From Naegleria gruberi (Eukaryota), in assembly GCA_000004985.1 (NCBI GenBank), contig GG738876.1: 64,000 bases of DNA; one strand, written 5' to 3'. Shown one piece after another: positions 7,969-44,804 of this stretch. Position numbers and translations under genes: made by a program. The notes beneath the pieces were generated by a model. That model ran no database searches and had not been told where the DNA came from. It saw only the letters and a list, made by a program, of their open reading frames with translations. The stretch's first letter is position 1, and the number at the start of each line of letters is the position of its first letter.

Positions 7969-8420
7969 GTTAGAAAGAAAAGGAAAGGTAAAGAATATAG
8001 AAAGATGAAGAAAAAAAAAGAATTACAGCAGTTCATCAATTGGCACACAGATTTTGTGCCAACACATTACCTAAAGCGTAACCCTTCAATCAAAGGTACA
8101 CGAGCTACACAATGACCGTCAGATTTTGCTTTTAGTCTGAGCATCTTTTTTATTAGAAACTAATGTAATTCCCAATTGAATTGTAATTGTTTTCAAGGTA
8201 ATAATCATGAACGCAATAAGAATGAATATCAAATTGTGGTTTTATTCTTTTTAAAATGTTGCACATTTTCAATCCCCAAACTGAAACTACAAATTTTGCA
8301 ATTTATTTTTGTAAGCAATTTCAAACAATCCATATTATTTGCGAACAACCTAATATTAGAATTGTTCTCAATTATCAATAGTCAGAATTGTAATAACTGA
8401 TATTTGGATCAAGAGTCAAT
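7969..8420. repeat. Left arm of a long inverted repeat (pairs with 10130..10597)
   Basis: The reverse complement of 10130-10597 aligns with 7969-8420. Checked segments are ~95-97% identical (e.g. attggcacacagattttgtgccaacacattacctaaagcgtaacccttcaatcaaaggtacacgagctac vs the same with 2 substitutions). Identity decays toward the inner ends (~8330-8420 / 10130-10250). Confidence 0.75.
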
Positions 8421-8600
8421 GATGACATTTGTTAAATTTTTTGTAAAGTTTCATGTTCCGATTTTCAAAACCTTCCAATCAAGCAAAAACGGAAGGTTTG
8501 GAAAATCGAATAAGTTGAAACGAAACAATTTTTTGTTTTCCAACACAAAAAAAAACTAAAATCTGATCACAACATAACAACAACAAGAAGCTTCTTTAAC

Positions 8601-9266
8601 ATGATGATGGACCCGGAAACAGCCAGGTTGAAGGCCTATTTTGATGATTATTACGATCAATTCATTGATGGCCACATGGATGAGAATTTTACTAATACCA
8701 ATATTGACCATTACATTTCAACTCTTTTCAGCCGAATGGAATCAGATAAACCACCACTACCACCTGCGACTGTTGCCACTGAATGTGTTATTAGTATTGC
8801 AAATGAGAAGGATGATAGTCATAATTGTAACAATAAGATCATCATTGAATTATTAAGCTCCTTCTACTTGCAAACTCGTCGTGATCAACAAGAGGTTGAA
8901 ATTTGTGTCTACTTTGAAAAAACAAATGCAGAGCAGTGGCAACGAGTGTTTACTGCCACTGCTACCCTTGAAAAGAAGGGTCGATATAATATGAAAGCTT
9001 TTAGCAGAAAAGAACTCAAGAAGAGGCTTAAAGATCAACCTGGGTATAAGGTAAATCAAAAAGACAAATTCTATTTAGTGATTGGTCAATTCAAATTCGT
9101 ACTGGTTTCGAAACAACGTGATAAGGTACCAAAATGGCACAATCTAATTGTTGTCAGTAATAGAGAAGTCGTTTCTTCCGAATACTCTTTCACTAATTTC
9201 ACTAATAAGGCCCTTATCCCAGAATTCAACTTTGCTAAAGTTAATGATCAGCTTAGCTTTCATTGA
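8601..9266 (+). CDS. Orphan hypothetical protein (221 aa) inside the inverted-repeat cassette
   Basis: Clean ORF beginning ATGATGATGGACCCG in an A-rich context and ending in TGA. No motif I recognise (MMMDPETARLKAYFDDYYDQFIDGHMDENF...KFYLVIGQFKFVLVSKQRDKVPKWHNLIVVSNREVV...). Not transposase-like (no DDE/RNase H-like or zinc-finger signature). Confidence 0.45.
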   Translation: MMMDPETARLKAYFDDYYDQFIDGHMDENFTNTNIDHYISTLFSRMESDKPPLPPATVATECVISIANEKDDSHNCNNKIIIELLSSFYLQTRRDQQEVEICVYFEKTNAEQWQRVFTATATLEKKGRYNMKAFSRKELKKRLKDQPGYKVNQKDKFYLVIGQFKFVLVSKQRDKVPKWHNLIVVSNREVVSSEYSFTNFTNKALIPEFNFAKVNDQLSFH

Positions 9267-9407
9267 TGAGTTCGATTGCCAATACTACTTATAATTAGTT
9301 TAGTTTGGTGATCACTACATACTTTATATATTCTATATGTATCCATTCCTCTATCTATCCATACTATATATATTACTATCTATCCATCCAAGAGTATTCG
9401 AAATTTC

Positions 9408-9474
9408 AATTAATGGTAGTGGTTGGTGTTATTTAGAACCCATTTGAATAACAAGCGAACCACTACCATTAATT
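9408..9474. repeat. Perfect 17-bp stem / 33-nt loop hairpin (aattaatggtagtggtt ... aaccactaccattaatt)
   Basis: Direct inspection: 9408-9424 is the exact reverse complement of 9458-9474. It sits ~140 bp downstream of the stop of ORF 8601..9266. Confidence 0.8.
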
Positions 9475-9559
9475 GGAATTTTGATTGCTGCAGATGTTCA
9501 TGCTAGTATCTATAATCCATCCTTATTCAAATCCAGTCTTATTGATTGGTAATTTTCAA

Positions 9560-10050
9560 TTTTATGCATTAAAACCTGTAGGGACATCATCAATCAAACA
9601 CCTTACAGAGTGAAAGATAACAAGGAACTGATCTGTGATTAGTTTCTTGTTGAGTGGACCAAAGAGTGAGGTTGTCCAAACAATAACATAAGGCAACTTC
9701 TCTCATCCACTCTATTCGAATTGCTGTTATGCCATTCGAATCACAGCTGTACTCATTAGGGAGCATTAGTCTATTTTCGATTAAGTAATTGAGTATTTGC
9801 AATCTGTTGCTTGTCGCTGTTGGTAAAGTTTCAGATAATATCATACTTATTACACCTTAGTGATAGATCCATGATTAGTTTTCAGTTTACTATTTAATTT
9901 GGGCAACTTACTTTCCTTAATGTTATTGTTTGGACAACCTCACTCTTTGGTCCACTCAACAAGAAACTAATCACAGATCAGTTCCTCGTTATCTTTCACT
10001 CTGTAAGGTGTTTGATTGATGATATCCCTACAGGTTAATGCATATAAAAC
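9560..10050. mobile_element. Nested MITE-like element: ~130-bp near-perfect terminal inverted repeats (9560-9689 / 9920-10050) flanking a 230-bp non-coding core
   Basis: The reverse complement of 9920-10050 matches 9560-9689 at ~97% (ttttatgcattaaaacctgtagggacatcatcaatcaaacaccttacagagtgaaagataacaaggaactgatctgtgattagtttcttgttgagtggaccaaagagtgaggttgtccaaacaataacat). No coding capacity. Confidence 0.55.
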
Positions 10051-10129
10051 TAATAAAAATTGATTCAAATCAATTTGAATTTATTTGTTTAATTATTTTT
10101 CCTTGAAAATCTTGGAAAATCTTCAAATT

Positions 10130-10597
10130 ATTCTGCCGAGATTTGCAGCGAATATTGACTCCTTGTTTGAATATCAACCATAAAGAACAATTAGAATTGT
10201 TTCATTCAATTTTTCAATATATAGGTGAAAGAAAAAACTGTAAATTTGAAATTGATTACAAAAATAAATTTCAAAATTTGTAGTTTCAGTTTGGGGATTG
10301 AAAATGAGCAACATTTTAAAAAGAATAAAACCACAATTTGATGTTCATTCTTATTGAGTTCATGACAATTACCTTGTAAATATCACTATTCAATTGGGAA
10401 TTACATTAGTTTCTAATAAAAAAGATGCTCAGACTAAAAGCAAAATCTGACGGTCATTGTGTAGCTCGTGTACCTTTGATAGAAGGGTTACGCTTTAGGT
10501 AATGTGTTGGCACCAAATCTGTGTGCCAATTGATGAACTGCTGTAATTCTTTTTTTTCTTCATCTTTCTATTCTTTACCTTTCTTTTACATTCTAAC
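10130..10597. repeat. Right arm of the long inverted repeat (pairs with 7969..8420)
   Basis: See left arm. Confidence 0.75.
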
Positions 10598-27496: not shown

Positions 27497-27567
27497 TCGG
27501 GTGTGGTATAGTGGTAGCATTCCAGACTGTCACTCTGGCGACCCGGGTTCAATTCCCGGCACTCGAG
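27497..27567 (+). tRNA. tRNA-Asp (anticodon GTC)
   Basis: Acceptor TCGGGTG/CACTCGA+G. D region GGTATAGTGGTAGCATTCC matches the conserved eukaryotic tRNA-Asp D arm. Anticodon stem-loop CCAGA-CTGTCAC-TCTGG; T arm CCGGG-TTCAATT-CCCGG. Confidence 0.8.
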
Positions 27568-27764: not shown

Positions 27765-28721
27765 ATGATTAAACCCAATACCACATCGTCCCTCGATCAT
27801 GAAAATAATCACAACTCCACTAGAAGTGTCATACAACAAGATGATTCGGAATCTAAACCAATCCAACTCTCAGAAAATCTGCATTTCAATTATTTGTACC
27901 TATCGGACGATGTAATTGGTGAAATTCTATCTTTTCATGATGATTTTCAATTTGTAGTAATGAATTGTGCATTGGTTTCAAAACAGTGGTTGAAAGTCAT
28001 TTCGGAACGATCAAAACTTTCATTGGAATGGAATAACTTGAAGAAATTGAAGGGAAGATTTTTACAGAATATCACAACTTTCACAGTGAGGGCTATTGAA
28101 GGAATTGGATTGATTAGTGACATACTGAAACAATTGAAATTTCTGGATATTTCTACTAATGCTATTGGATATAAAGGAGCTAGATATATTGGCCAATTGG
28201 AACAATTAAATCATCTTGAAATTAGAAATTGTAATATTGGAGTGGAGGGAGATAAATATATTCGTCAATTGCAACATTTGACTCATCTTGATATTGGATG
28301 CAATAACATTGGTGATGAAGGAGTCAAATATATTAGTCAATTGAAACCATTAACTAATCTAAATGTTTATTTAAATAATATTGGTGTTGAAGGAGCGAAA
28401 TATATTAGTGAGCTTAAACAATTAACTCATCTTGATATTGGGTGCAATGACATTGGTGGTGAAGGTGCCAAATATATTGGTACACTTGAAAATGTAACTC
28501 ATCTCAGTATGTCAGATAATAATATTGGTTGTGAAGGTGCAAAATATATTAGTGGAATGAAACATCTAAGTTTTCTCGATATTGCTACCAATCGTATTAG
28601 AGATGAGGGAGCGAAATATATTGGTGAAATGGAACAATTATCATTTCTGTTTATGAGATACAATATTATTAGTGATGAAGGAGCAAAATATTTAAGCGAA
28701 AGAGGATTCAATAATTGTTGA
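27765..28721 (+). CDS. F-box / leucine-rich-repeat (RNI-like LRR) protein (318 aa)
   Basis: ATG at 27765. F-box-like N-terminus (YLYLSDDVIGEILSFHDDFQFVVMNCALVSKQWLKVI), then ten or more 24-25 residue repeats of the form LxxLxIxxNxIGxEGAKYI. Confidence 0.7.
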   Translation: MIKPNTTSSLDHENNHNSTRSVIQQDDSESKPIQLSENLHFNYLYLSDDVIGEILSFHDDFQFVVMNCALVSKQWLKVISERSKLSLEWNNLKKLKGRFLQNITTFTVRAIEGIGLISDILKQLKFLDISTNAIGYKGARYIGQLEQLNHLEIRNCNIGVEGDKYIRQLQHLTHLDIGCNNIGDEGVKYISQLKPLTNLNVYLNNIGVEGAKYISELKQLTHLDIGCNDIGGEGAKYIGTLENVTHLSMSDNNIGCEGAKYISGMKHLSFLDIATNRIRDEGAKYIGEMEQLSFLFMRYNIISDEGAKYLSERGFNNC

Positions 28722-31796: not shown

Positions 31797-33416
31797 ATGT
31801 CCTCATCAATTGCCCTGAATAATTCTAATACCTCTACCACTACTACTACCAATCCTCCTTTTGATATTTCCAAGCTTGTTACTCAAGCAGTTTTGTTACC
31901 TTCCTCCTCATCGTCATCCTTCCATAACAACCTCCCTAAATCATCATCATCATCCCCCTGTGCATTGGATAATAATACCAATGAACAACAACAACAACAA
32001 CCATTGAGTGATGATTCGATCATTCTCGAAGAAACAACCACCACCGACGTTGATAATACAGTAATTGCCACCATAACGACAAAAGCTGCTCTAGGCAGTG
32101 GTGCTTTGATGGTTGAAGGAGTTGCCCTTGTCGACGATGAAGATGACGAAGAATCAACACCTGCCACACCAGAAGCTAATGGAGAATCCCAGCAAGAATC
32201 TTCTCAACAAGAACACCAAGAATCTGGCCTTTTAAAAGCCAAGAAGAAGAAGAATTCATTGACTAATAGTGCAGCAGCTCTTGAAGATTTGGAAACTATT
32301 TCAACCATGACAACTGTCAAGACTACAAGTACAACAAAGAAGGTTGTCAAGAGACATTCATCGCTCTCTGCTCAAACTATGAACCAAGCAATGGATCAAT
32401 CAATGAATCAATCAGCTCAACAAGAAGAACAATACACCACTCTTAAATCATCCACTCCAACAAAGAAGCAGAACAAGGAAAAGAAAGCAAGTCCTATCAA
32501 TAATCTCTTCAAATCCATCAAGGGTGTCATTAAATCTTTAAAGAAGAATAAGAATAACAAGAGCACTTCTAGCTCAACGACTTCACATAATAATAGCAAG
32601 CAAGATGGTGATTTAATCCATCAATTCTGTANNNNNNNNNNNNNNNNNNNNNNNNNNNNNNNNNNNNNNNNNNNNNNNNNNAACAAGGTGAAGCACTCAC
32701 TGGTTTCTCAACAAGACGAAGAAGTCAAGACAAATAAGAAGAGAGCTCACAAGCAAGCTCCACAAACTGCTCTTCTCCCACCTCAACGACCACACGTTCA
32801 AGGCAAGAAGACTCTTGTACTTGACCTTGATGAAACATTGGTTCACTCTGTCTTTGTACATACTGACCAAGCTGACTTTGTGATTCCAATTGAAATGGAT
32901 GGTAGAACATACTCTTGTTATGTTCTCAAGAGACCTGGAGTTGACGAATACTTGAGAGAACTCGGTCAATACTATGAAATTATCATCTTTACTGCTTCTC
33001 TCTCCCTGTATGCCAACCCACTTCTTGACATTCTTGATAAGCATGGTGTCATTGAAGGTAGATTATTCCGTGAACATTGTACAAAGGTTGGTGATACTTA
33101 CATTAAGGATCTCTCAAGATTGGGTCGTGATTTAGATCAAACCATTATTGTAGATAATTCTCCAAGTTGCTATGCAATGCAACCACAAAATGCTTTGGCT
33201 TGTACCACATGGTACGATGATCCAAACGATAGAGAGCTGGGTCTTCTTGCTGATTGTCTCAAACGACTTGAAAGAGAAAAGGCTGTCTATGATGGTCTCA
33301 AGTCATGGAAGGAATTAATTTCATCAGGTGTTAATGTTACCTCATGGAATGGCGGATCAGCAATGACAGTATCCTCGACGTCTCACCATCATCAAGTAAT
33401 AAAGAAAAGAATGTAA
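31797..33416 (+). CDS. SCP/FCP-type (NIF domain, DxDxT) protein phosphatase with long low-complexity N-terminus; CDS interrupted by a 50-N assembly gap
   Basis: C-terminal domain KKTLVLDLDETLVHS (DxDxT catalytic motif), ...IIFTASLSLYANPLLDILD..., ...IIVDNSP... is typical of CTDSP/Dullard-like phosphatases. The N-terminal half is S/T/Q/N-rich. Ns at 32632-32681 fall inside the reading frame, so the protein is incomplete in the middle. Confidence 0.75.
   Translation: MSSSIALNNSNTSTTTTTNPPFDISKLVTQAVLLPSSSSSSFHNNLPKSSSSSPCALDNNTNEQQQQQPLSDDSIILEETTTTDVDNTVIATITTKAALGSGALMVEGVALVDDEDDEESTPATPEANGESQQESSQQEHQESGLLKAKKKKNSLTNSAAALEDLETISTMTTVKTTSTTKKVVKRHSSLSAQTMNQAMDQSMNQSAQQEEQYTTLKSSTPTKKQNKEKKASPINNLFKSIKGVIKSLKKNKNNKSTSSSTTSHNNSKQDGDLIHQFCXXXXXXXXXXXXXXXXXNKVKHSLVSQQDEEVKTNKKRAHKQAPQTALLPPQRPHVQGKKTLVLDLDETLVHSVFVHTDQADFVIPIEMDGRTYSCYVLKRPGVDEYLRELGQYYEIIIFTASLSLYANPLLDILDKHGVIEGRLFREHCTKVGDTYIKDLSRLGRDLDQTIIVDNSPSCYAMQPQNALACTTWYDDPNDRELGLLADCLKRLEREKAVYDGLKSWKELISSGVNVTSWNGGSAMTVSSTSHHHQVIKKRM
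32632..32681. other. Assembly gap (50 N)
   Basis: Run of n characters inside a low-complexity coding region. Confidence 1.
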
Positions 33417-33968: not shown

Positions 33969-34049
33969 TGCAGAAGGTGGGATTTGAACCCACGAAGCTT
34001 GCGCAGTAGAACTTGAGTCTACCCCCTTTGACCACTCGGGAACCCCTGC
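33969..34049 (-). tRNA. tRNA-Leu (anticodon CAA), class II with long variable arm, no intron
   Basis: Reverse complement: GCAGGGG-TT-CCCGAGTGGTCAAAGGG-G-GTAGA-CTCAAGT-TCTAC-TGCGCAAGCTTC-GTGGG-TTCAAAT-CCCAC-CTTCTGC-A. Acceptor pairs with 2 G-U. 81 nt. Confidence 0.8.
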
Positions 34050-34196: not shown

Positions 34197-35498
34197 TTAT
34201 TGATTGAATGCCTCAGAGAATGCTGCCCAATTAGGACTTTCTTCCAAGTCGAAAACAGCAAAAATAACTTGTTTGAGGCATGAGTTTTCATACTTTTTCA
34301 AACATTTTCTCCACAATTTGGCTTCTCTGAATGGATCATGTAAGAATGCTCCACATCCACTGGCACCTGTTACAAGTGTGTGAATATTCTGATCGGCACA
34401 CGTCTTGAGAACTCCCTCAATATCTAGAATGAGTCGTTGTTCCAATTCCTTTTCATTTGTAATATTTCCATAACCATACCAGGAGTAAAAGTAATTTCTC
34501 TCCGAGTATGGAGTAAAGAAGGGAACAAATGGTCTGAAATCTGCAAATGCAGCAGCAATCATGTAGCAATCGACTGGCTCACTACCAGTCACGAATTTTG
34601 TCTTGGTAAAGTAATTGCCACCTGGAGGCAAATGAAGACCCTTCTTGTAAGAAACCCACCTTCCTCTCACAAAGCTCTTCATTCCAGTATCAATTAATTT
34701 TCCAACAGTTCCCAATAGAGCAGCACCATCACAATTGGTTGCAACTTCTTCCTCTTGAGATCCTCCATAATCAACACAATATGTTCCACATACATTGTGT
34801 GCATTAGCAAAATTGACCCAGGCAACTTTCTTACTAGAATCATTTAATTCCTTTGAAACCAGCTCAACAACTTCTTGTGTTCCCATTCTCAGTGACCTGG
34901 TTTTTAGTAGGTTTGAATCTAAAAGCTCATCAATTAAAAGAGGAGCTTCAGGTTTCAATTCAGGACAAAACCAATCATATAAAGTGAGAGAGCTCAAATG
35001 GTCAATTAATTGAGAACGTTTCTCCTCTACCTGTTCTTCACTCAAGTTCATAGTACCGTCCCAAGCTACATCTACTCTCGATCCAATAGCATATACTCTT
35101 CCTCTCAATAATCTTTTATCTGCATGACTTTTCGAATAGCTCAACTTTCGAACATTCTCTCTCGACATTCTATTCGTCACTCTCAAGCAAAAGTTTTGGA
35201 ATTCCTCTCCATGTAAATCAAAACTTCTCGATCCAATTCTATGAAATGCTTCTCTGTACTTTTTGAGAATTTCCTCAACAGATAATGAAGATTCACAAGG
35301 TTGAATATCATTTAACCAATTTAAACAAGTTTGATCTTCCACCAATTTTAAATATAATTTTTCATTAATTATTGTTTTGATCTTGTTGTTTTCCTGATCC
35401 GATTCTTGTTGATGAATTATTGTTTTAAATTGTTTCAAACCGGAAGGAAATTCAGCTGGATAATCATTACGAAGTTTTGGCAATGTCGAGTTGATCAT
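34197..35498 (-). CDS. Microbial-type poly(ADP-ribose) glycohydrolase-like macrodomain protein (TIGR02452/DUF2263-like; 433 aa)
   Basis: Segments ...WVNFANAHNVCGTYCVDYGGSQEEEV... (compare NFANA...GGG-x-QEE of bacterial-type PARG) and ...HTLVTGASGCGAFLHDPFREAKLW...VIFAVFD (compare LVLGAWGCGVFGNDP...VVFAV.D). The family assignment is from memory of the signatures. Confidence 0.5.
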   Translation of the reverse strand: MINSTLPKLRNDYPAEFPSGLKQFKTIIHQQESDQENNKIKTIINEKLYLKLVEDQTCLNWLNDIQPCESSLSVEEILKKYREAFHRIGSRSFDLHGEEFQNFCLRVTNRMSRENVRKLSYSKSHADKRLLRGRVYAIGSRVDVAWDGTMNLSEEQVEEKRSQLIDHLSSLTLYDWFCPELKPEAPLLIDELLDSNLLKTRSLRMGTQEVVELVSKELNDSSKKVAWVNFANAHNVCGTYCVDYGGSQEEEVATNCDGAALLGTVGKLIDTGMKSFVRGRWVSYKKGLHLPPGGNYFTKTKFVTGSEPVDCYMIAAAFADFRPFVPFFTPYSERNYFYSWYGYGNITNEKELEQRLILDIEGVLKTCADQNIHTLVTGASGCGAFLHDPFREAKLWRKCLKKYENSCLKQVIFAVFDLEESPNWAAFSEAFNQ

Positions 35499-35721
35499 TT
35501 TTTTCTATTATTATTAATATTATGAATAAACCACCATTTTCTTATCAGTTCCATGAAGAAGTATTTTCAGAAGAGTTATTTCCCAATGTGCTGAGAATTG
35601 ATGATATCATCAAAAAGATGACGTCATTTTGCCGCCATTTTTTTCACGGGTGGCCGACGCATATTCAAAATGGCCTGAAATCGTCACTGGGAAAACATGG
35701 GCCAAGTTGACTTCCAACGAT

Positions 35722-36879
35722 ATATATAATATCACACCACATAAAATTAACAGTACGTGACGGTCATATATAAACTACTATTCATGAATTGTAATGGTTT
35801 CAATCGTTGTATTACACGAGTAAATAATCAATTTGTCATTTTGAAAAATTACAATTTTAATTACAACAACTTAAAAACCACATTTTCTAAATTTCATATG
35901 GTAATCTCTCTGAATTATATTGTATACATACCAAAAAGTAATGTATCAATTATTTGCTATTTAAAACCTTGTATTTTTAAATATTTATCTATTAAACTTT
36001 AACTACTATATTTGGAATAAAATTTTCAATATTCTCAAGAAATAATTAACCAATGTTTTCATGGTTAATGTTAAATTATATAAAGATGATAATCAAGCAA
36101 AATAATATAAATTGTTAATGATTTAGTGTTTCAGGATTCAAATCTTATGTTTTTGTCAATTTATCTTCCTTATTTTTCAGTATTTTAAAAAAAGCCGAAT
36201 CAGAAAGATTGTAATTGTAATTTAATTTAGTTTCGTATATTGTTGGAGATGTAAATCATTAAGAATAAAAACTAGATACGAAAAAACATTGAAATTCTTG
36301 CTGGGCTAGTGGTAAATTTTTAACTTGGTCAAAATTCAAAAAATGCCACCAAAGCCAAGCAAGTTCATGCTTCGATCAAAAATTATGAAATCAACAAGAT
36401 CCAAGAACAAGAATGATGATGATGATCTCTCTAATATTTGTCCTGGTATTGATTTAAAAAGAATTGGTGATGTAAAATTGATTAATTTAATTGGAAAGAA
36501 AGTTTTTATTCGTGATGGTCGTTTATTCACCCATTCCGAACCTATTACAATATCATCTAGACAATGTACATGTTCTTCTTGTGGAAAATTGTATAGAAAT
36601 TCATTACGAAAGTACCATGACAGAACATTAGCAAAGAAAAATCAACAGTTCCGTAAAACAATCAAATCACTCAAAAGGAAAGTCAAAATATTGTCACATA
36701 ATGATGATGTTATTGTAGAAAAATTGAGATCACTGTTGGAACGTAATATTATCACACCAAATCATTTCTTTTATAGATTTATATCTAACACGATCCTCAA
36801 TGCCGACAAATCTTCACATTACTTCATGAATAGTAGTTTATATATGACCGTCACGTACTGTTAATTTTATGTGGTGTGA
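35722..36879. mobile_element. Candidate DNA transposon remnant: perfect 57-bp terminal inverted repeats (35722-35778 and 36823-36879) flanking ~1 kb with one ORF; right TIR abuts an assembly gap
   Basis: tcacaccacataaaattaacagtacgtgacggtcatatataaactactattcatgaa at 35722-35778 is the exact reverse complement of 36823-36879. Ns begin at 36880, so the true right boundary and any TSD are unknown. Confidence 0.4.
36343..36864 (+). CDS. Hypothetical basic protein (173 aa from first ATG) encoded inside the TIR-bounded element; its last ~14 codons run into the right TIR
   Basis: First ATG at 36343 (aaaaATGCCACCAAAG). Basic N-terminus, Cys cluster (CTCSSCGKLYRNSLRKYHDR) and a K/R-rich helical segment (KTIKSLKRKVKILSHNDDVIVEKLRSLLERNII). 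It is vaguely like the post-THAP region of P-element-type transposases, but without an intact zinc finger I can verify. Confidence 0.3.
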   Translation: MPPKPSKFMLRSKIMKSTRSKNKNDDDDLSNICPGIDLKRIGDVKLINLIGKKVFIRDGRLFTHSEPITISSRQCTCSSCGKLYRNSLRKYHDRTLAKKNQQFRKTIKSLKRKVKILSHNDDVIVEKLRSLLERNIITPNHFFYRFISNTILNADKSSHYFMNSSLYMTVTYC

Positions 36880-36929
36880 NNNNNNNNNNNNNNNNNNNNN
36901 NNNNNNNNNNNNNNNNNNNNNNNNNNNNN
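36880..36929. other. Assembly gap (50 N)
   Basis: Run of n characters immediately after a perfect inverted repeat. Confidence 1.
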
Positions 36930-39322: not shown

Positions 39323-41751
39323 ATGAAAAGAGAAACTTTTAAGGTTCATGCAATACAACAAGGAAGAAGGAATAATGATTCAACTCCTTCTTCTTCCTAC
39401 TCGGAAGGATTTTTAAAGATGAAGAAGAATGTAAATAATAGCTTGATGATGCTGGTTGCATTAATATCAATCATGCTGCTGTTGGGTTTCTCTCAATATG
39501 TTGAAGCATTGAATGGTGAGGGAGTTGATGTATCCAAGTGCACTTATCAGAGTTCTGTCTCATTGGGCTCTACCATGACTTTAAAGTGGAATGTTTTGAA
39601 GAATCCTAGTGATGCCTCCAATTATATTCTCGAATTTGGTTTAATTTGCACAAAGGCAGGTTATTGTTCCATTGGATTTGATCATCCGTATGGGCAGGGC
39701 ATGCAAAGTATTGATACCTTGTTTGCTTTTGTGAGTTCTGGAGTTGCCAATGTTCAGGATTGTTACTGCACCAATAAGCATTCAATTCCAACCATCGATT
39801 CGAACAATGGAGGTTCTAATGACTTTTTGGAAACTAATGGTGGAGTTGTGAATGGACAGTATCATTATAGATGGAGTAGAAAGATGAGTACTGGAGATTC
39901 ACAGGATGCAACCTTTAAGAATTCAAATGTTTATGTGAGTTGGGCCTATCATTCATCCTCTACCTCAATTTCTTCAACTCACACCGACTATGGAAGAAAT
40001 ATTGCAGTTAATTTCCTTTCCAATACACCAACTGAAACCTATGTGAAAGGAATGATTAATAATGGAGCTAGTAGTTCATCCTCTTCTTCCTCAAATTCAA
40101 CAAGTACTAGTAGCTCCACTTACACACAAGTTCCATCTCTATGCCCTTGCCATTGGTATTGCTTCACTAATCATGGCTGGATTAATTGTGACTTATTTGC
40201 CAACTGCTTTCAAATCCAACATTATTACTCACTTTTTATTTTATAGAAAGATTTCCAAGGTTATTCCATATGATTTTCCATTAGTTTCTTATGTGAATCA
40301 ATTCCTTGATTTGACAATTGGTGAAGTATTGGTGATTATTGTCTATTTGGCTATGAAGGTTGTTTGGTTTGTTTATGGATTTCTTACTCAAACTGATGAT
40401 TCTACAGCAAAGAAGGTAGCCTCTGGATTTACTCAATTAATTGTGTTTAACTATATTTTCCTGTTCATTCCAGTGACAAGATATTCAGTTTTACAAGCAT
40501 TATTTGGAATTTCATTCGAAAGATCAATCAAATTCCATAAATGGATTGGTGTCATGGTTTTCCTCTCTGCAACTGCTCATGGTATAGTGGAATTTATTGC
40601 GTACAGGGACAATATTCCATATATATTCTCGGTTGGTGATGGTTTTCCATTACTGGGAATTATTGCTTGGTTGACTCTTGGATTGCTTCTTTTATTCTCA
40701 CTTGAGCCAATCAGAAGAAAATTATATGAATTGTTTTTGGTATTCCACATTCCATTGACCTTTATCACAGTCACATTCTCAATTATTCATGGTGAAGGTT
40801 GGATTAATTTACTTCCATATATGGCATTCTCACTCTTTTTAATGGTAGTGGATTTTCTTTTGAGAGCAATAATTGGATTTGGCGTTCCAACCAAGTTGGT
40901 TCAGATTTCATATGATGAAGATGCTGAGGTTACAACTTGTGTATTCGAAAAGAGATTCTTGACCCTGTTCCACAATCCAAATCATGCTCACTTTGTCTTT
41001 GTTTACATTCCACAAGTTTCCATTTATCAACTCCATCCAATGACAATTAGTTCATGTGTTAAGTTGCATGATGGTAGTCATCAATTTACATGCCACATCA
41101 AACGAATGGAAGGAGGTTCTTGGTTAACCAAATTGGCCAACCTAGCCAAGTCAAAGAATGATTGATGAATATTTTGGCGTTAGAGTTGAAGGAGCATATG
41201 GAAATCTTTCCATTCCATTCTTCAATTCAGGACTATTCTCAAAAATAGAAGATCCAAAGCGTACCATTGTCTTTATCGTTGCTGGAATTGGAGCCACTCC
41301 TGCCAATGCTATCCTTACAGCTCTGGAAGATCCAAAATATAATGAACCAACTCCTTACAAGGTCTTTGTTAACTTTACAATGAGAAATGAAGCTCTCCTT
41401 CCTCACTTGACCAAAATTATTCAACAAAAACCCAATGTTGAAAGTTCCTTCTATATTACTGGTTCCAAATCAAAATCTCACAATGCCAATCAGATTGAAA
41501 TGCTAGAGAAGGGAAGAAGTACTGGAATAGATCATAGTAATGATAGAAGATTTATCAAGGGATCAAGACCAGTCTATGAAGAGTATCTTCATAAGGTGAA
41601 ACAATATGTTGCCCAATCTAAATCAAAGCCATACGTTTCAGTGTTTGCCTGTGGTCCAGCAGCCATGATGAATGCAGTTCATAATGCTGTAATTTCAGCT
41701 AGTGATATGGATTGTCGATTTGAACTTCATAAGGAAGAATTTGAATTTTAA
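39323..41751 (+). pseudogene. DOMON-domain ferric reductase / NADPH-oxidase-like gene, copy 1 of a tandem pair; reading frame broken by two single-nucleotide frameshifts (~40130 and ~41162)
   Basis: Three overlapping ORFs (39323..40246, 40062..41165, 41158..41751) together encode a signal peptide, a DOMON-like extracellular domain (YCSIGFDHPYGQGMQSIDTLFAF...YHYRWSRKMSTGDSQDATF), a six-TM ferric-reductase domain with heme-binding His residues (HKWIGVMVFLSATAHG; IHGEGW), the FAD motif HPMTISS and NAD(P)H motifs (FIVAGIGATPANAIL; FACGPAAMMNAV). Successive ORFs are offset by +1. Copy 2 is colinear without these shifts. These are either real pseudogene lesions or indel errors in low-complexity sequence. 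Confidence 0.55.
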
Positions 41752-42042
41752 TTTATAAACTATTTTGTTTTAAGGTAATAAAAGCATCTTGGAATTCCAA
41801 GAGGAAGTTTTTTCCTCTGTTGTTGAAAAATATGGACTTTTTTGGAACTTTTACGACAAGAATATGTTGTTAAGGATGCATCCTTCCCTTTTAATCTTCT
41901 TATTTTCCATTATTCCACATGAATCATTGTAAATTGCGCTGGTGTTTTTAAAAATTGGCGTTTTGCATGGCCTCCTCTCCTCAAAACCAAGAAGACAACT
42001 GGAAAAAATCTTTAACACAACCATTGAATAGGATTTTCACAC

Positions 42043-44474
42043 ATGTGGATATTAAGGCAGCAGCAGAATCATCCAATAAAACATTTAGAGAGTGTTAACT
42101 ACTCTCTTTCATCAAATAGAACACAAAAATGTTCGGAAAGAGGATTATTAAAATTAACTGTCATGTGTTTGATAATATTCATGATAAATATCACTCATAT
42201 ACAACATGTTGAGGCATTGAACAGTGCAGGAAATGATGTGTCCAAATGTACCTATCAAAAATCAGTAAAACTTGGCTCTACCATGACTCTCTACTGGAAT
42301 GTTTTGAAAAATCCCAATGATGCCTCCAATCCCATTCTTGAATTTGGTTTAATTTGCACAAAAGCAGGTTACTGTTCCATTGGATTTGACCATCCATTTG
42401 GAAAAGGTATGCAAAGTATTGATACCTTGTTTGCTTATACTTCCAATGGAGCTGCATATGTTCAGGATTGTTATTGCACCAATAAGAAATCCATTCCAAC
42501 CATCGACTCGAACAATGGAGGTTCTAATGACTTTTGGAAACTAATGGTGGAGTTGTGAATGGACAGTATCATTATAGGTGGAGTAGAAAGATGAGCACTG
42601 GAGATTCACAGGATGCAACCTTTAAGAATTCAAATGTTTATGTGAGTTGGGCCTATCATTCATCCTCGACTTCAATTAGGTCAACTCACACGGCCTATGA
42701 TAGAAATATTGCCATCAACTTTCTTTCTGTCTCGCCAACTGAAACCTACTCAACTGGTATGATTAATTCTGGAACTAGTAACAATAATAATGGAGGTGGT
42801 AATAATAATGGTGGCAATGATGACAATGAAGGAGACAATGATGATGACCATGACAGTGGAGATTCAAAGAAGCACTTGTATCATTTGTATGCTTTGGGAA
42901 TTGCTGTATTTTCCTTAATGGTATTAGGAATTATTACCACTATCTTACCAGCTTCTGTCAAATCTAATATCTTTACTCACTTTTTGCTGTACAGAAAGGT
43001 TTCGAAAGTTATTCCATATGATTTTCCATTAGTTTCCTATGTGAATCAATTCCTTGATCTGACTCTTGGTGAGTTGGTTATCATTTTAGTATATGCTGGA
43101 TTGAATGTTATTTGGTTTGTTTATGGATATTTGGAAAGTCAAAAGGTTTCGTCTGCATTTGCAAAGGTGATTGTATTTAACTATATTTTCCTGTTCATTC
43201 CAGTGACAAGATATTCAGTTTTACAAGCATTATTTGGAATTTCATTCGAAAGATCAATCAAATTCCATAAATGGATTGGTGTCATGGTTTTCCTCTCTGC
43301 AACTGCTCATGGTATAGTGGAATTCATCGAATTTAAAGATAACATTCCATTCATGTTTTCAGTGGAGGATGGATATCCATTGTTGGGAATTATTGCATGG
43401 CTAGCTCTTGGATTATTATTGCTATTTTCAATGGAGCCAATCAGAAGAAAATTATATGAATTGTTTTTGGTTTTCCATATTCCATTGACATTTATCACAG
43501 TCACATTCTCAATTATTCATGGTGAAGGTTGGATTAATTTACTTCCATACATGGCATTCTCTATTATTTTAATGGTAATTGACTGGACTTTAAGAGCAAT
43601 TATTGGATTTGGTCTTCATACACAACTAGTCCATATATCCTATGATGAAGAGTCTGAAGTGACCACTTGTGTATTCGAAAAGAGATTCTTGACCCTGTTC
43701 CACAATCCAAATCATGCTCATTTTGTTTTTGTTTACATTCCACAAGTTTCCATTTATCAACTCCATCCAATGACAATTAGCTCATGTGAAAAACTTGCAG
43801 ATAGTAACCATTACCGATTCACATGCCACATCAAAAGAATGGAAGGAGGTTCTTGGTCAACCAAATTGGCCAATCTTGCAAAATCCAACAAACCAATCGA
43901 TTCATATCATGGTGTTAGAGTTGAAGGAGCTTACGGAAATCTTTCCATTCCATTCTTCAATGACAGTCTCCTCTCCAGAAGTGAAGATAAAAAGAGAACC
44001 ATTGTCTTTATCGTTGCTGGAATTGGAGCCACTCCTGCCAATGCTATCCTTACAGCTCTGGAAGATCCAAAATATAATGAACCAACTCCTTACAAAGTCT
44101 ATGTGAATTTAACTTCAAGAAATGAAGCAATTCTCAAGCACTTTAGAATACTGGTCCAACACAAACCAAATGTAGATTGCACATTCTACATAACAGGAAC
44201 TAAACCATCCAAATCTATAGAAATGTTAGAAAAAGGGCAAAGTACTGGAATTGACCATAGTACAGATAGAAGGTTTATCAGAGGATCAAGACCAAATTAT
44301 GTTGATTACTTGAATGGTGTGAAAGCACAAGTCAATCAATCAAAATCGCTCCCTTACGTTTCAGTGTTTGCCTGTGGTCCTTCTTCAATGATGAATTCTG
44401 TTCATAATGCTGTGTGGTCATGTAGTGATATGGATTGTCGTTTCGAATTACATAAAGAAGAATTTGAATTTTAA
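42043..44474 (+). CDS. DOMON-domain ferric reductase / NADPH-oxidase-like protein, copy 2 (intact except for a 1-nt deletion in a T-run at ~42525 that splits it into ORFs 42043..42558 and 42534..44474)
   Basis: Same architecture as copy 1: signal peptide, DOMON-like domain, FRD TM domain HKWIGVMVFLSATAHG, HPMTISS, FIVAGIGATPANAIL and FACGPSSMMNSV. Copy 1 has gactttttggaaa (T5) where copy 2 has gacttttggaaa (T4), so a homopolymer indel (sequencing error or real) is likely. Confidence 0.6.
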
Positions 44475-44804
44475 ATTGTTGATGAAATTAAATGATAATT
44501 TTCTGTGTCATTGTGTGAAGATCACTGAAGCGCTGTTGATTTTTTTTAAGTGATCACACAATTTAGAGCAAACATAACCTATTTCCAAACACTGACATTT
44601 GACGTCGTCATTAAAACAATCGAACAGTCAAAAAAAATCACCCATCTGTCCAACATCAAAGTTGTCAAAATTACGATAGAAAACAACCAAGTCATCCGTA
44701 ACAAGAGATAGTTTTCTTCTTCTTCATCTTTAAATTATAATCTTTTTTCAACAACACATCATCATATCCAACACAACCATTGGATATATTCACATCATAA
44801 GAGA

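Follow-up and report, generated by a model that had tools for sequence, protein, structure and literature searches.

A candidate internally deleted P-superfamily-like element bounded by inverted repeats at an assembly gap in Naegleria gruberi

Internally deleted copies of 0.5-2.8 kb are the norm among the P elements of Drosophila, and deleted copies have also been found in zebrafish (PMC7776569). The transposase of these elements is ordered as an N-terminal DNA-binding domain, a dimerisation helix, an HTH region and an RNase H domain (PMC7776569), and the catalytic domain of the superfamily carries the signature string D...D...[C/D](2)H...E, with a spacing of 73 and 36 in the Drosophila transposase DmTNP (PMC8230255). 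As far as PMC7776569 relays it from its refs 62 and 64, the product of the deleted element KP comprises only the N-terminal part of the transposase; it binds P-element DNA, forms dimers and inhibits the full enzyme. Kolobok elements, which have TTAA target duplications and 5'-RR...YY-3' termini, have been reported from Naegleria (PMC9587614). In N. gruberi, recognised transposons make up approximately 0.28% of the assembly (bioRxiv 10.64898/2026.06.24.734286), and the repeats that can be assigned to a class are a minor part of the total (PMC12344493); in the literature that we searched, no description of P-type elements in Naegleria was found.

The locus described here lies in a stretch of 64,000 nucleotides of N. 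gruberi DNA (contig GG738876.1), all of which was analysed and which is referred to as the window. Its segment 35732-36879 is probably an internally deleted, non-autonomous cut-and-paste element resembling those of the P superfamily (P-element/THAP9, TNP-like). The segment is delimited by the two arms of an inverted repeat, the left one at 35732-35788 on the plus strand, a candidate left TIR, and the right one at 36823-36879 on the minus strand, a candidate right TIR that is cut by the end of the contig. An earlier inspection of the same DNA, which we call the sequence-only reading, had reported a perfect 57-bp inverted repeat, and in this it was right, since the arms are complementary at 57/57 positions and the right arm lies where it was placed; the left arm, however, had been given as 35722-35778, coordinates that are 10 bases too low. 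The left junction reads ...CAACGATATATATAATA|TCACACC, the left flank is (AT)-rich and its bases 35724-35731 are ATATAATA, while the putative end sequence of the element is TCACACCACATAAAATTAAC. The octamer ATATAATA was not seen in the sequence past the gap, and the immediate right flank is inside the 50 N. With up to three mismatches allowed, a 32-nt core of the arm has only two sites in the 64-kb window, against 0 expected by chance (100 shuffles), and the arm alone contains no hairpin. Gapped blastn lengthens the repeat inward to 35732-35796 versus 36817-36879, by way of a 2-nt indel followed by 6 matching bases, an extension whose probability by chance is approximately 0.003; the inner edge of the repeat decays like that of a natural repeat, with no abrupt stop. 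A 17-nt direct match between 35726-35742 and 36746-36762 was set aside as being at chance level, with an estimated 0.3-1 expected.

As the sequence-only reading had noted, a run of 50 N (36880-36929) begins one base past the right arm. This gap conceals the sequence to the right of the element, and with it a target-site duplication, if there is one, and any outward extension of the repeat. Because the contig stops at the right arm, "57 bp" and "terminal" are to be read as minimum values rather than as measured ones; the repeat may continue outward, in which case the true left terminus could lie to the left of 35732. We infer, nevertheless, that the ends of the repeat are the true termini of the element. 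The gap had also been taken as a sign of a multi-copy repeat, an argument that does not hold, since a repeat of 57 nt alone is too short to halt a Sanger assembly and the gap must have another cause (the N. gruberi assembly is one that we take to be a Sanger draft). That cause may be longer identical arms, in which case the left terminus would lie between 35499 and 35731, or else a flank that is hard to sequence, the left flank being (AT)-rich. The other gap of the window, at 32632-32681, has no repeat at either edge, which leaves the right arm as the sole gap edge bearing one; both gaps are exactly 50 N long, which suggests a conventional and not a measured gap length. An origin of the 57-nt length as a de Bruijn k-mer artefact was dropped, given the Sanger draft and the absence of such a repeat at the other gap. 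This other gap is located inside an NIF/CTD-phosphatase-like ORF (31797-33416), whose reading frame is kept across it.

Between the arms, and extending into the right one, there is an ORF of 173 aa plus stop at 36343-36864 on the plus strand, which runs from ATG to TAA exactly as first described. Its codons 1-160 (36343-36822, plus strand) are the part homologous to a transposase, while it is the right arm that supplies the 13 final codons (FMNSSLYMTVTYC) and the TAA stop. Open frames of at least 173 codons are expected 0.02 times in composition-matched random DNA of 64 kb. With 0.16 bits per codon, the ORF has a better codon-usage score in its own frame than in the other five, but one that is low for the host, most long genes of which score 0.22-0.43; its GC content (31%) is between that of the flanking host genes (37-38%) and that of the adjacent non-coding stretches (21-22%). 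Pfam holds no family for the ORF. The sequence-only reading had proposed comparing it with transposase profiles, and none of those in Pfam is matched by the ORF alone; a weak coiled-coil-type match (DivIC, E 0.011) is below its cut-off. The product, tried with two start codons, is not on record as a gene or protein and corresponds to no annotated N. gruberi protein. Look-ups of the exact products of the ORF and of three neighbouring proteins likewise found none on record, and no alternative assembly across the gap was found.

The identity of the ORF comes from a single relative. In an exhaustive HMMER search over 1.84 billion representative proteins, its only match at E<=0.001 was P0055, a protein of 270 aa (E 2.9e-21), with 41% identity over ORF residues 22-164. 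Neither the ORF nor the spliced relative of 602 aa described below gave any match in word-indexed protein searches, and these negatives are weak, because the index missed P0055, which is in the collection, even with a query containing P0055 itself. P0055 comes from a contig of 1,884 bp and 31% GC (L001) in an ENA metagenome assembly, in which it is followed on the same strand by an ORF of 340 codons. Positions 814-848 of this contig are a 35-nt GT..AG segment, and its removal joins the frame of P0055 with the downstream ORF into a product of 602 aa. Unspliced, the downstream ORF matches PF21787 weakly (17.3 bits, E 0.006), whereas the spliced product of 602 aa reaches 32.8 bits, above the curated Pfam cut-off of 24.6 (E 9.9e-8), in a match that covers profile positions 8-134 of 137 and crosses the splice junction. 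In Pfam, PF21787 stands for the RNase H N-terminal domain (TNP-like) of the transposases of P elements and THAP9. By eye, the residues D272 (SWDEMD), D375 (SSDGANG) and D398-x2-H401 stand in the order of the P-superfamily signature, with an acidic spacing of 103 and 23, and the contig ends before the expected signature E. The 35-nt intron is situated just before the DEM catalytic motif, and a prokaryote-style gene caller has split this transposase into two products without Pfam annotation.

Other searches with the relative were negative: Pfam has no family for P0055 alone; the L001 product has no Pfam matches to THAP, HTH (PF12017), GTP-binding or C-terminal domains; searches of PDB sequences with the relative and with a two-sequence profile gave nothing significant; and phmmer detected no similarity to Drosophila P. 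We take L001, from its sequence, to encode a divergent P-superfamily transposase from an AT-rich eukaryote. The suggestion of a P-type transposase made by the sequence-only reading is thus supported, in that the sole relative of the ORF among 1.84 billion proteins is the N-terminus of a PF21787-bearing gene. The window ORF itself ends at residue ~160 of the homology and has no catalytic domain, so that its membership of the P superfamily is by descent of the N-terminal part only. A classification that consists of one metagenomic relative and one Pfam domain counts against the explanation that we prefer.

The extent of the homology agrees with what an internal deletion predicts. The ORF and P0055 both begin with MP and a basic stretch, and they have in common C33, H64 in LFTHS, C77-x2-C80 followed by KLYRNxLRKY, and a TPNxFFY motif. 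The homology ends at ORF residues ~157-164, or nucleotides 36811-36834, and the repeat starts at 36817 (gapped) or 36823 (perfect); about four codons at most separate the end of the homology from the inner limit of the right arm. The L001 protein continues past this point, toward and then through its RNase H domain, whereas all frames of the window, before and after the gap, are without any further piece of the L001 transposase. The ORF thus has the native start of a P-like transposase and its initial ~160 codons, joined to an inverted copy of the sequence found 611 bp upstream of the start codon; the idea of an internal deletion, raised before the relative was known, is corroborated by a homology that comprises ~160 residues from the N-terminus and goes no further than the right arm.

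A likeness to the linker that follows the THAP finger had been proposed for the basic helical stretch of the ORF; a long helix after a Cys/His N-terminal region is indeed predicted, in models of low confidence, but no THAP finger was detected, the THAP domain having no match at E<=1 in either the ORF or P0055, and the conserved C33...H64...C77-x2-C80 is a ligand order other than C2CH. The AF2 models of both proteins contain one long helix (residues 88-133 in the ORF and 93-133 in P0055) and short strands in the Cys/His region, and they are unreliable, with pLDDT of 47.6 for the ORF and 40.1 for P0055, too poor for a fold search. On these models and on the sequences, the layout of the ORF and L001 together appears to parallel the domain order of the P transposase.

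The region from the left arm to the start codon (35789-36342, plus strand) is an AT-rich leader or subterminal region of 554 bp, with a GC content of 21.8% versus a window median of 34%. It contains most of the sites of ATTGTAAT, which is found at 35788(+), 35848(-), 36208/36214(+) and, inside the ORF, 36544(-). These amount to 5 copies in the element of 1,148 bp versus 0.34 expected from the density in the window, a statistic that is weakened by the AT-rich background. Of the five, the first directly adjoins the left arm on its inner side and two are in tandem at 36208-36227, and it is possible that ATTGTAAT is a subterminal binding motif, for which the sequence makes it a candidate. An ORF of 81 aa at 35757-36002 has no coding signal and no Pfam match; another of 62 aa, to the left of the arm (35522-35710), was rejected, as it has no coding signal and no family.

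The window has 34% GC and is gene-dense, with mostly uninterrupted ORFs. Two genes adjoin the element, which is upstream of NAEGRDRAFT_58416 by 233 bp and directly downstream of a gene of the MAPEG family, whose 3' end resumes 72 nt past the gap. The ORF at 34200-35498 on the minus strand is 100% identical to NAEGRDRAFT_58416 over 433 residues. NAEGRDRAFT_58416 is a microbial-type PARG-like protein, with homologues that are approximately 50% identical over their full length and patchy in distribution, occurring in bdelloid rotifers (Adineta, Rotaria and Didymodactylos), Willaertia, Acrasis and a Physarum transcript. Rfam found only two tRNA genes, tRNA-Leu(CAA) at 33969-34049 (minus strand) and tRNA-Asp(GTC) at 27497-27567 (plus strand), and the former, 1.7 kb to the left of the element, is too far away to suggest a tRNA-targeted insertion. 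Elsewhere in the window there is a tandem duplication of approximately 2.7 kb (39494-41754 and 42202-44477, 73-89% identity) that includes a DOMON-domain gene, as well as an array of 72-nt tandem repeats at 28160-28663. A second segment with inverted repeats, 7969-10597, has arms of approximately 360 nt (7969-8325 versus 10245-10597) with 94-98% complementarity, an inner inverted repeat of 124 nt (9573-9696 and 9913-10036) and an ORF of 221 aa (8601-9266) without a Pfam family; its sequence is unrelated to that of the element at 35732, and it could be a transposon with long TIRs or a local palindrome.

Taken as an internally deleted transposon, the locus would keep its left end, with an arm of at least 57 bp, the AT-rich leader of 554 bp and the first ~160 codons of the transposase. 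The deletion would have joined codon ~160 to the inverted repeat of the right end, adding 13 further codons before the stop, and with it the HTH region and the RNase H catalytic domain would have been lost, leaving a copy unable to move itself. Such a copy could be mobilised only in trans, by a full-length transposase that recognises the repeat arms. If expressed, the ORF would yield a protein with putative DNA-binding and dimerising regions and without a catalytic domain, which is the layout of the KP repressor, and by analogy the product of 173 aa may act as a repressor.

Because the right arm adjoins a gap, the possibility that the truncation is a product of the assembly has to be considered. 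We regard it as unlikely that the gene is undeleted and that the gap hides its remainder, possibly that of a full-length element, the 57-nt tail having come from a chimeric or fold-back read or from a read of another, deleted copy that was merged into this locus. The right arm is, in fact, exactly the last 57 bases of the contig, the homology would break at the same point in this case too, and the 6-nt microhomology between GTAATG (35791-35796) and CATTAC (36817-36822) suits template switching; furthermore, if a repeat of this length is too short to stop the assembly, something else should be in the gap. A random chimera, however, would seldom join points 1 kb apart in a genome of ~41 Mb, and simple snap-back priming predicts CATTAC-AA-TTCATGAA, whereas the observed sequence is without those two bases. 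The resumption of the MAPEG gene so soon after the gap also argues against a long hidden remainder, and the equal length of the two gaps suggests that they are small or unmeasured, and not that one of them conceals 2 kb. The junction at 36822/36823 adjoins the contig end, and read coverage is usually thin at contig ends; even so, we take the truncation for a genuine deletion rather than an effect of the assembly.

The unobserved outer limit of the right arm bears on the suggestion, which seems to us distinctly improbable, that the repeat is the edge of a local palindrome, with its right copy continuing inside the gap as a reverse complement of what lies to the left of 35732, and that it has cut through an old transposase gene. 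Long identical arms would explain the break of the contig, the inverted duplication at 7969-10597 is an example of such a structure in the same window, and no second copy of the arm was found in the window or in the JGI metagenome and IMG/VR contigs. Conversely, the sequence after the gap has no similarity to the reverse complement of 35500-35731, and a repeat that starts a few codons from the end of the homology, with the native start and the leader intact, is better fitted by the end of a transposon. It would be more surprising still, and we consider it very improbable, if the ORF were a gene of the host, derived by domestication from the N-terminal DNA-binding part of a transposase and retained for a cellular role, with a repeat that is incidental or regulatory. 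The frame is intact over 160 homologous codons from a native-looking start and its coding signal is positive; yet a recent deletion would also be expected to leave an intact frame, the ORF falls short of most host genes in both GC content and codon score, and its frame ends in 13 codons and a stop that belong to the repeat arm. In addition, the ORF is absent from the annotated protein set and has no orthologue in the other Naegleria, Willaertia and Acrasis proteomes of the collection searched.

An internally deleted element is the reading that we favour. No second copy of the arm or of the element was found within the 64-kb window, and no paralogous protein among the 1.84 billion representative proteins. 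A 25-mer of the arm had 0 matches in JGI metagenome contigs and a 21-mer had 0 matches in IMG/VR contigs, while scans for protein patterns in contigs from metagenomes, viruses and prokaryotic genomes found no relative. These results fit either a solitary relic or a family missed by annotation and databases; on the reading favoured here, a mobile family would exist. A bolder proposal, which we hold to be doubtful, is that N. gruberi harbours a recently active P-superfamily lineage, with a non-THAP Cys/His N-terminal DNA-binding domain and a KP-like repressor of 173 aa; if true, this repressor would represent an independent origin of deletion-derived self-regulation outside animals. On the internal-deletion reading, the locus would be a heterolobosean P/THAP9-type element with, for the N-terminus of its transposase, exactly one relative known. 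Both the host range of the P superfamily and the diversity of its N-terminal domains would be widened, the latter possibly by a new domain, and annotators would gain a seed from which to search for the family; the understanding of how P-type elements work would be unchanged by it.

Among the systems with which the element can be compared, Kolobok has in its favour that it is a cut-and-paste DNA transposon superfamily already known in Naegleria. It was rejected because the left junction, ATAATA|TCACACC, has no TTAA and no RR start, the arm opening with pyrimidine-C-A (if 35732 is the true terminus), and because the catalytic domain of the relative matches the P/THAP9 profile. With the animal transposases of the THAP9 and Pdre2 type (PMC8230255, PMC7776569) there is a likeness in the sole relative of the ORF, which has PF21787 and the order D...D...D(2)H; the acidic residues of L001 are, however, spaced by 103 and 23, where the Drosophila P transposase has 73 and 36, and the copy in the window is without any catalytic part. 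Members of the P superfamily are expected to have a split RNase H domain of the TNP-like kind, a THAP (C2CH) finger followed by a coiled-coil or leucine-zipper dimerisation region, inverted repeats at their termini, direct target-site duplications of 7-8 bp and dispersed copies, some full-length and some deleted. From the Drosophila P element itself the N. gruberi element differs in having arms of at least 57 bp, as against 31 bp in P, and from both P and KP in that no THAP finger was detected and that its host is a heterolobosean amoeba. The P element makes an 8-bp target-site duplication, which is not visible here, the right flank being in the gap.

The closest parallel is with KP, itself an element of ~1.15 kb. 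Like KP, the N. gruberi element is ~1.15 kb long and bounded by inverted repeats, has preserved its 5' end along with an N-terminal portion of the transposase, lacks the RNase H domain and reaches a stop shortly past the deletion junction.
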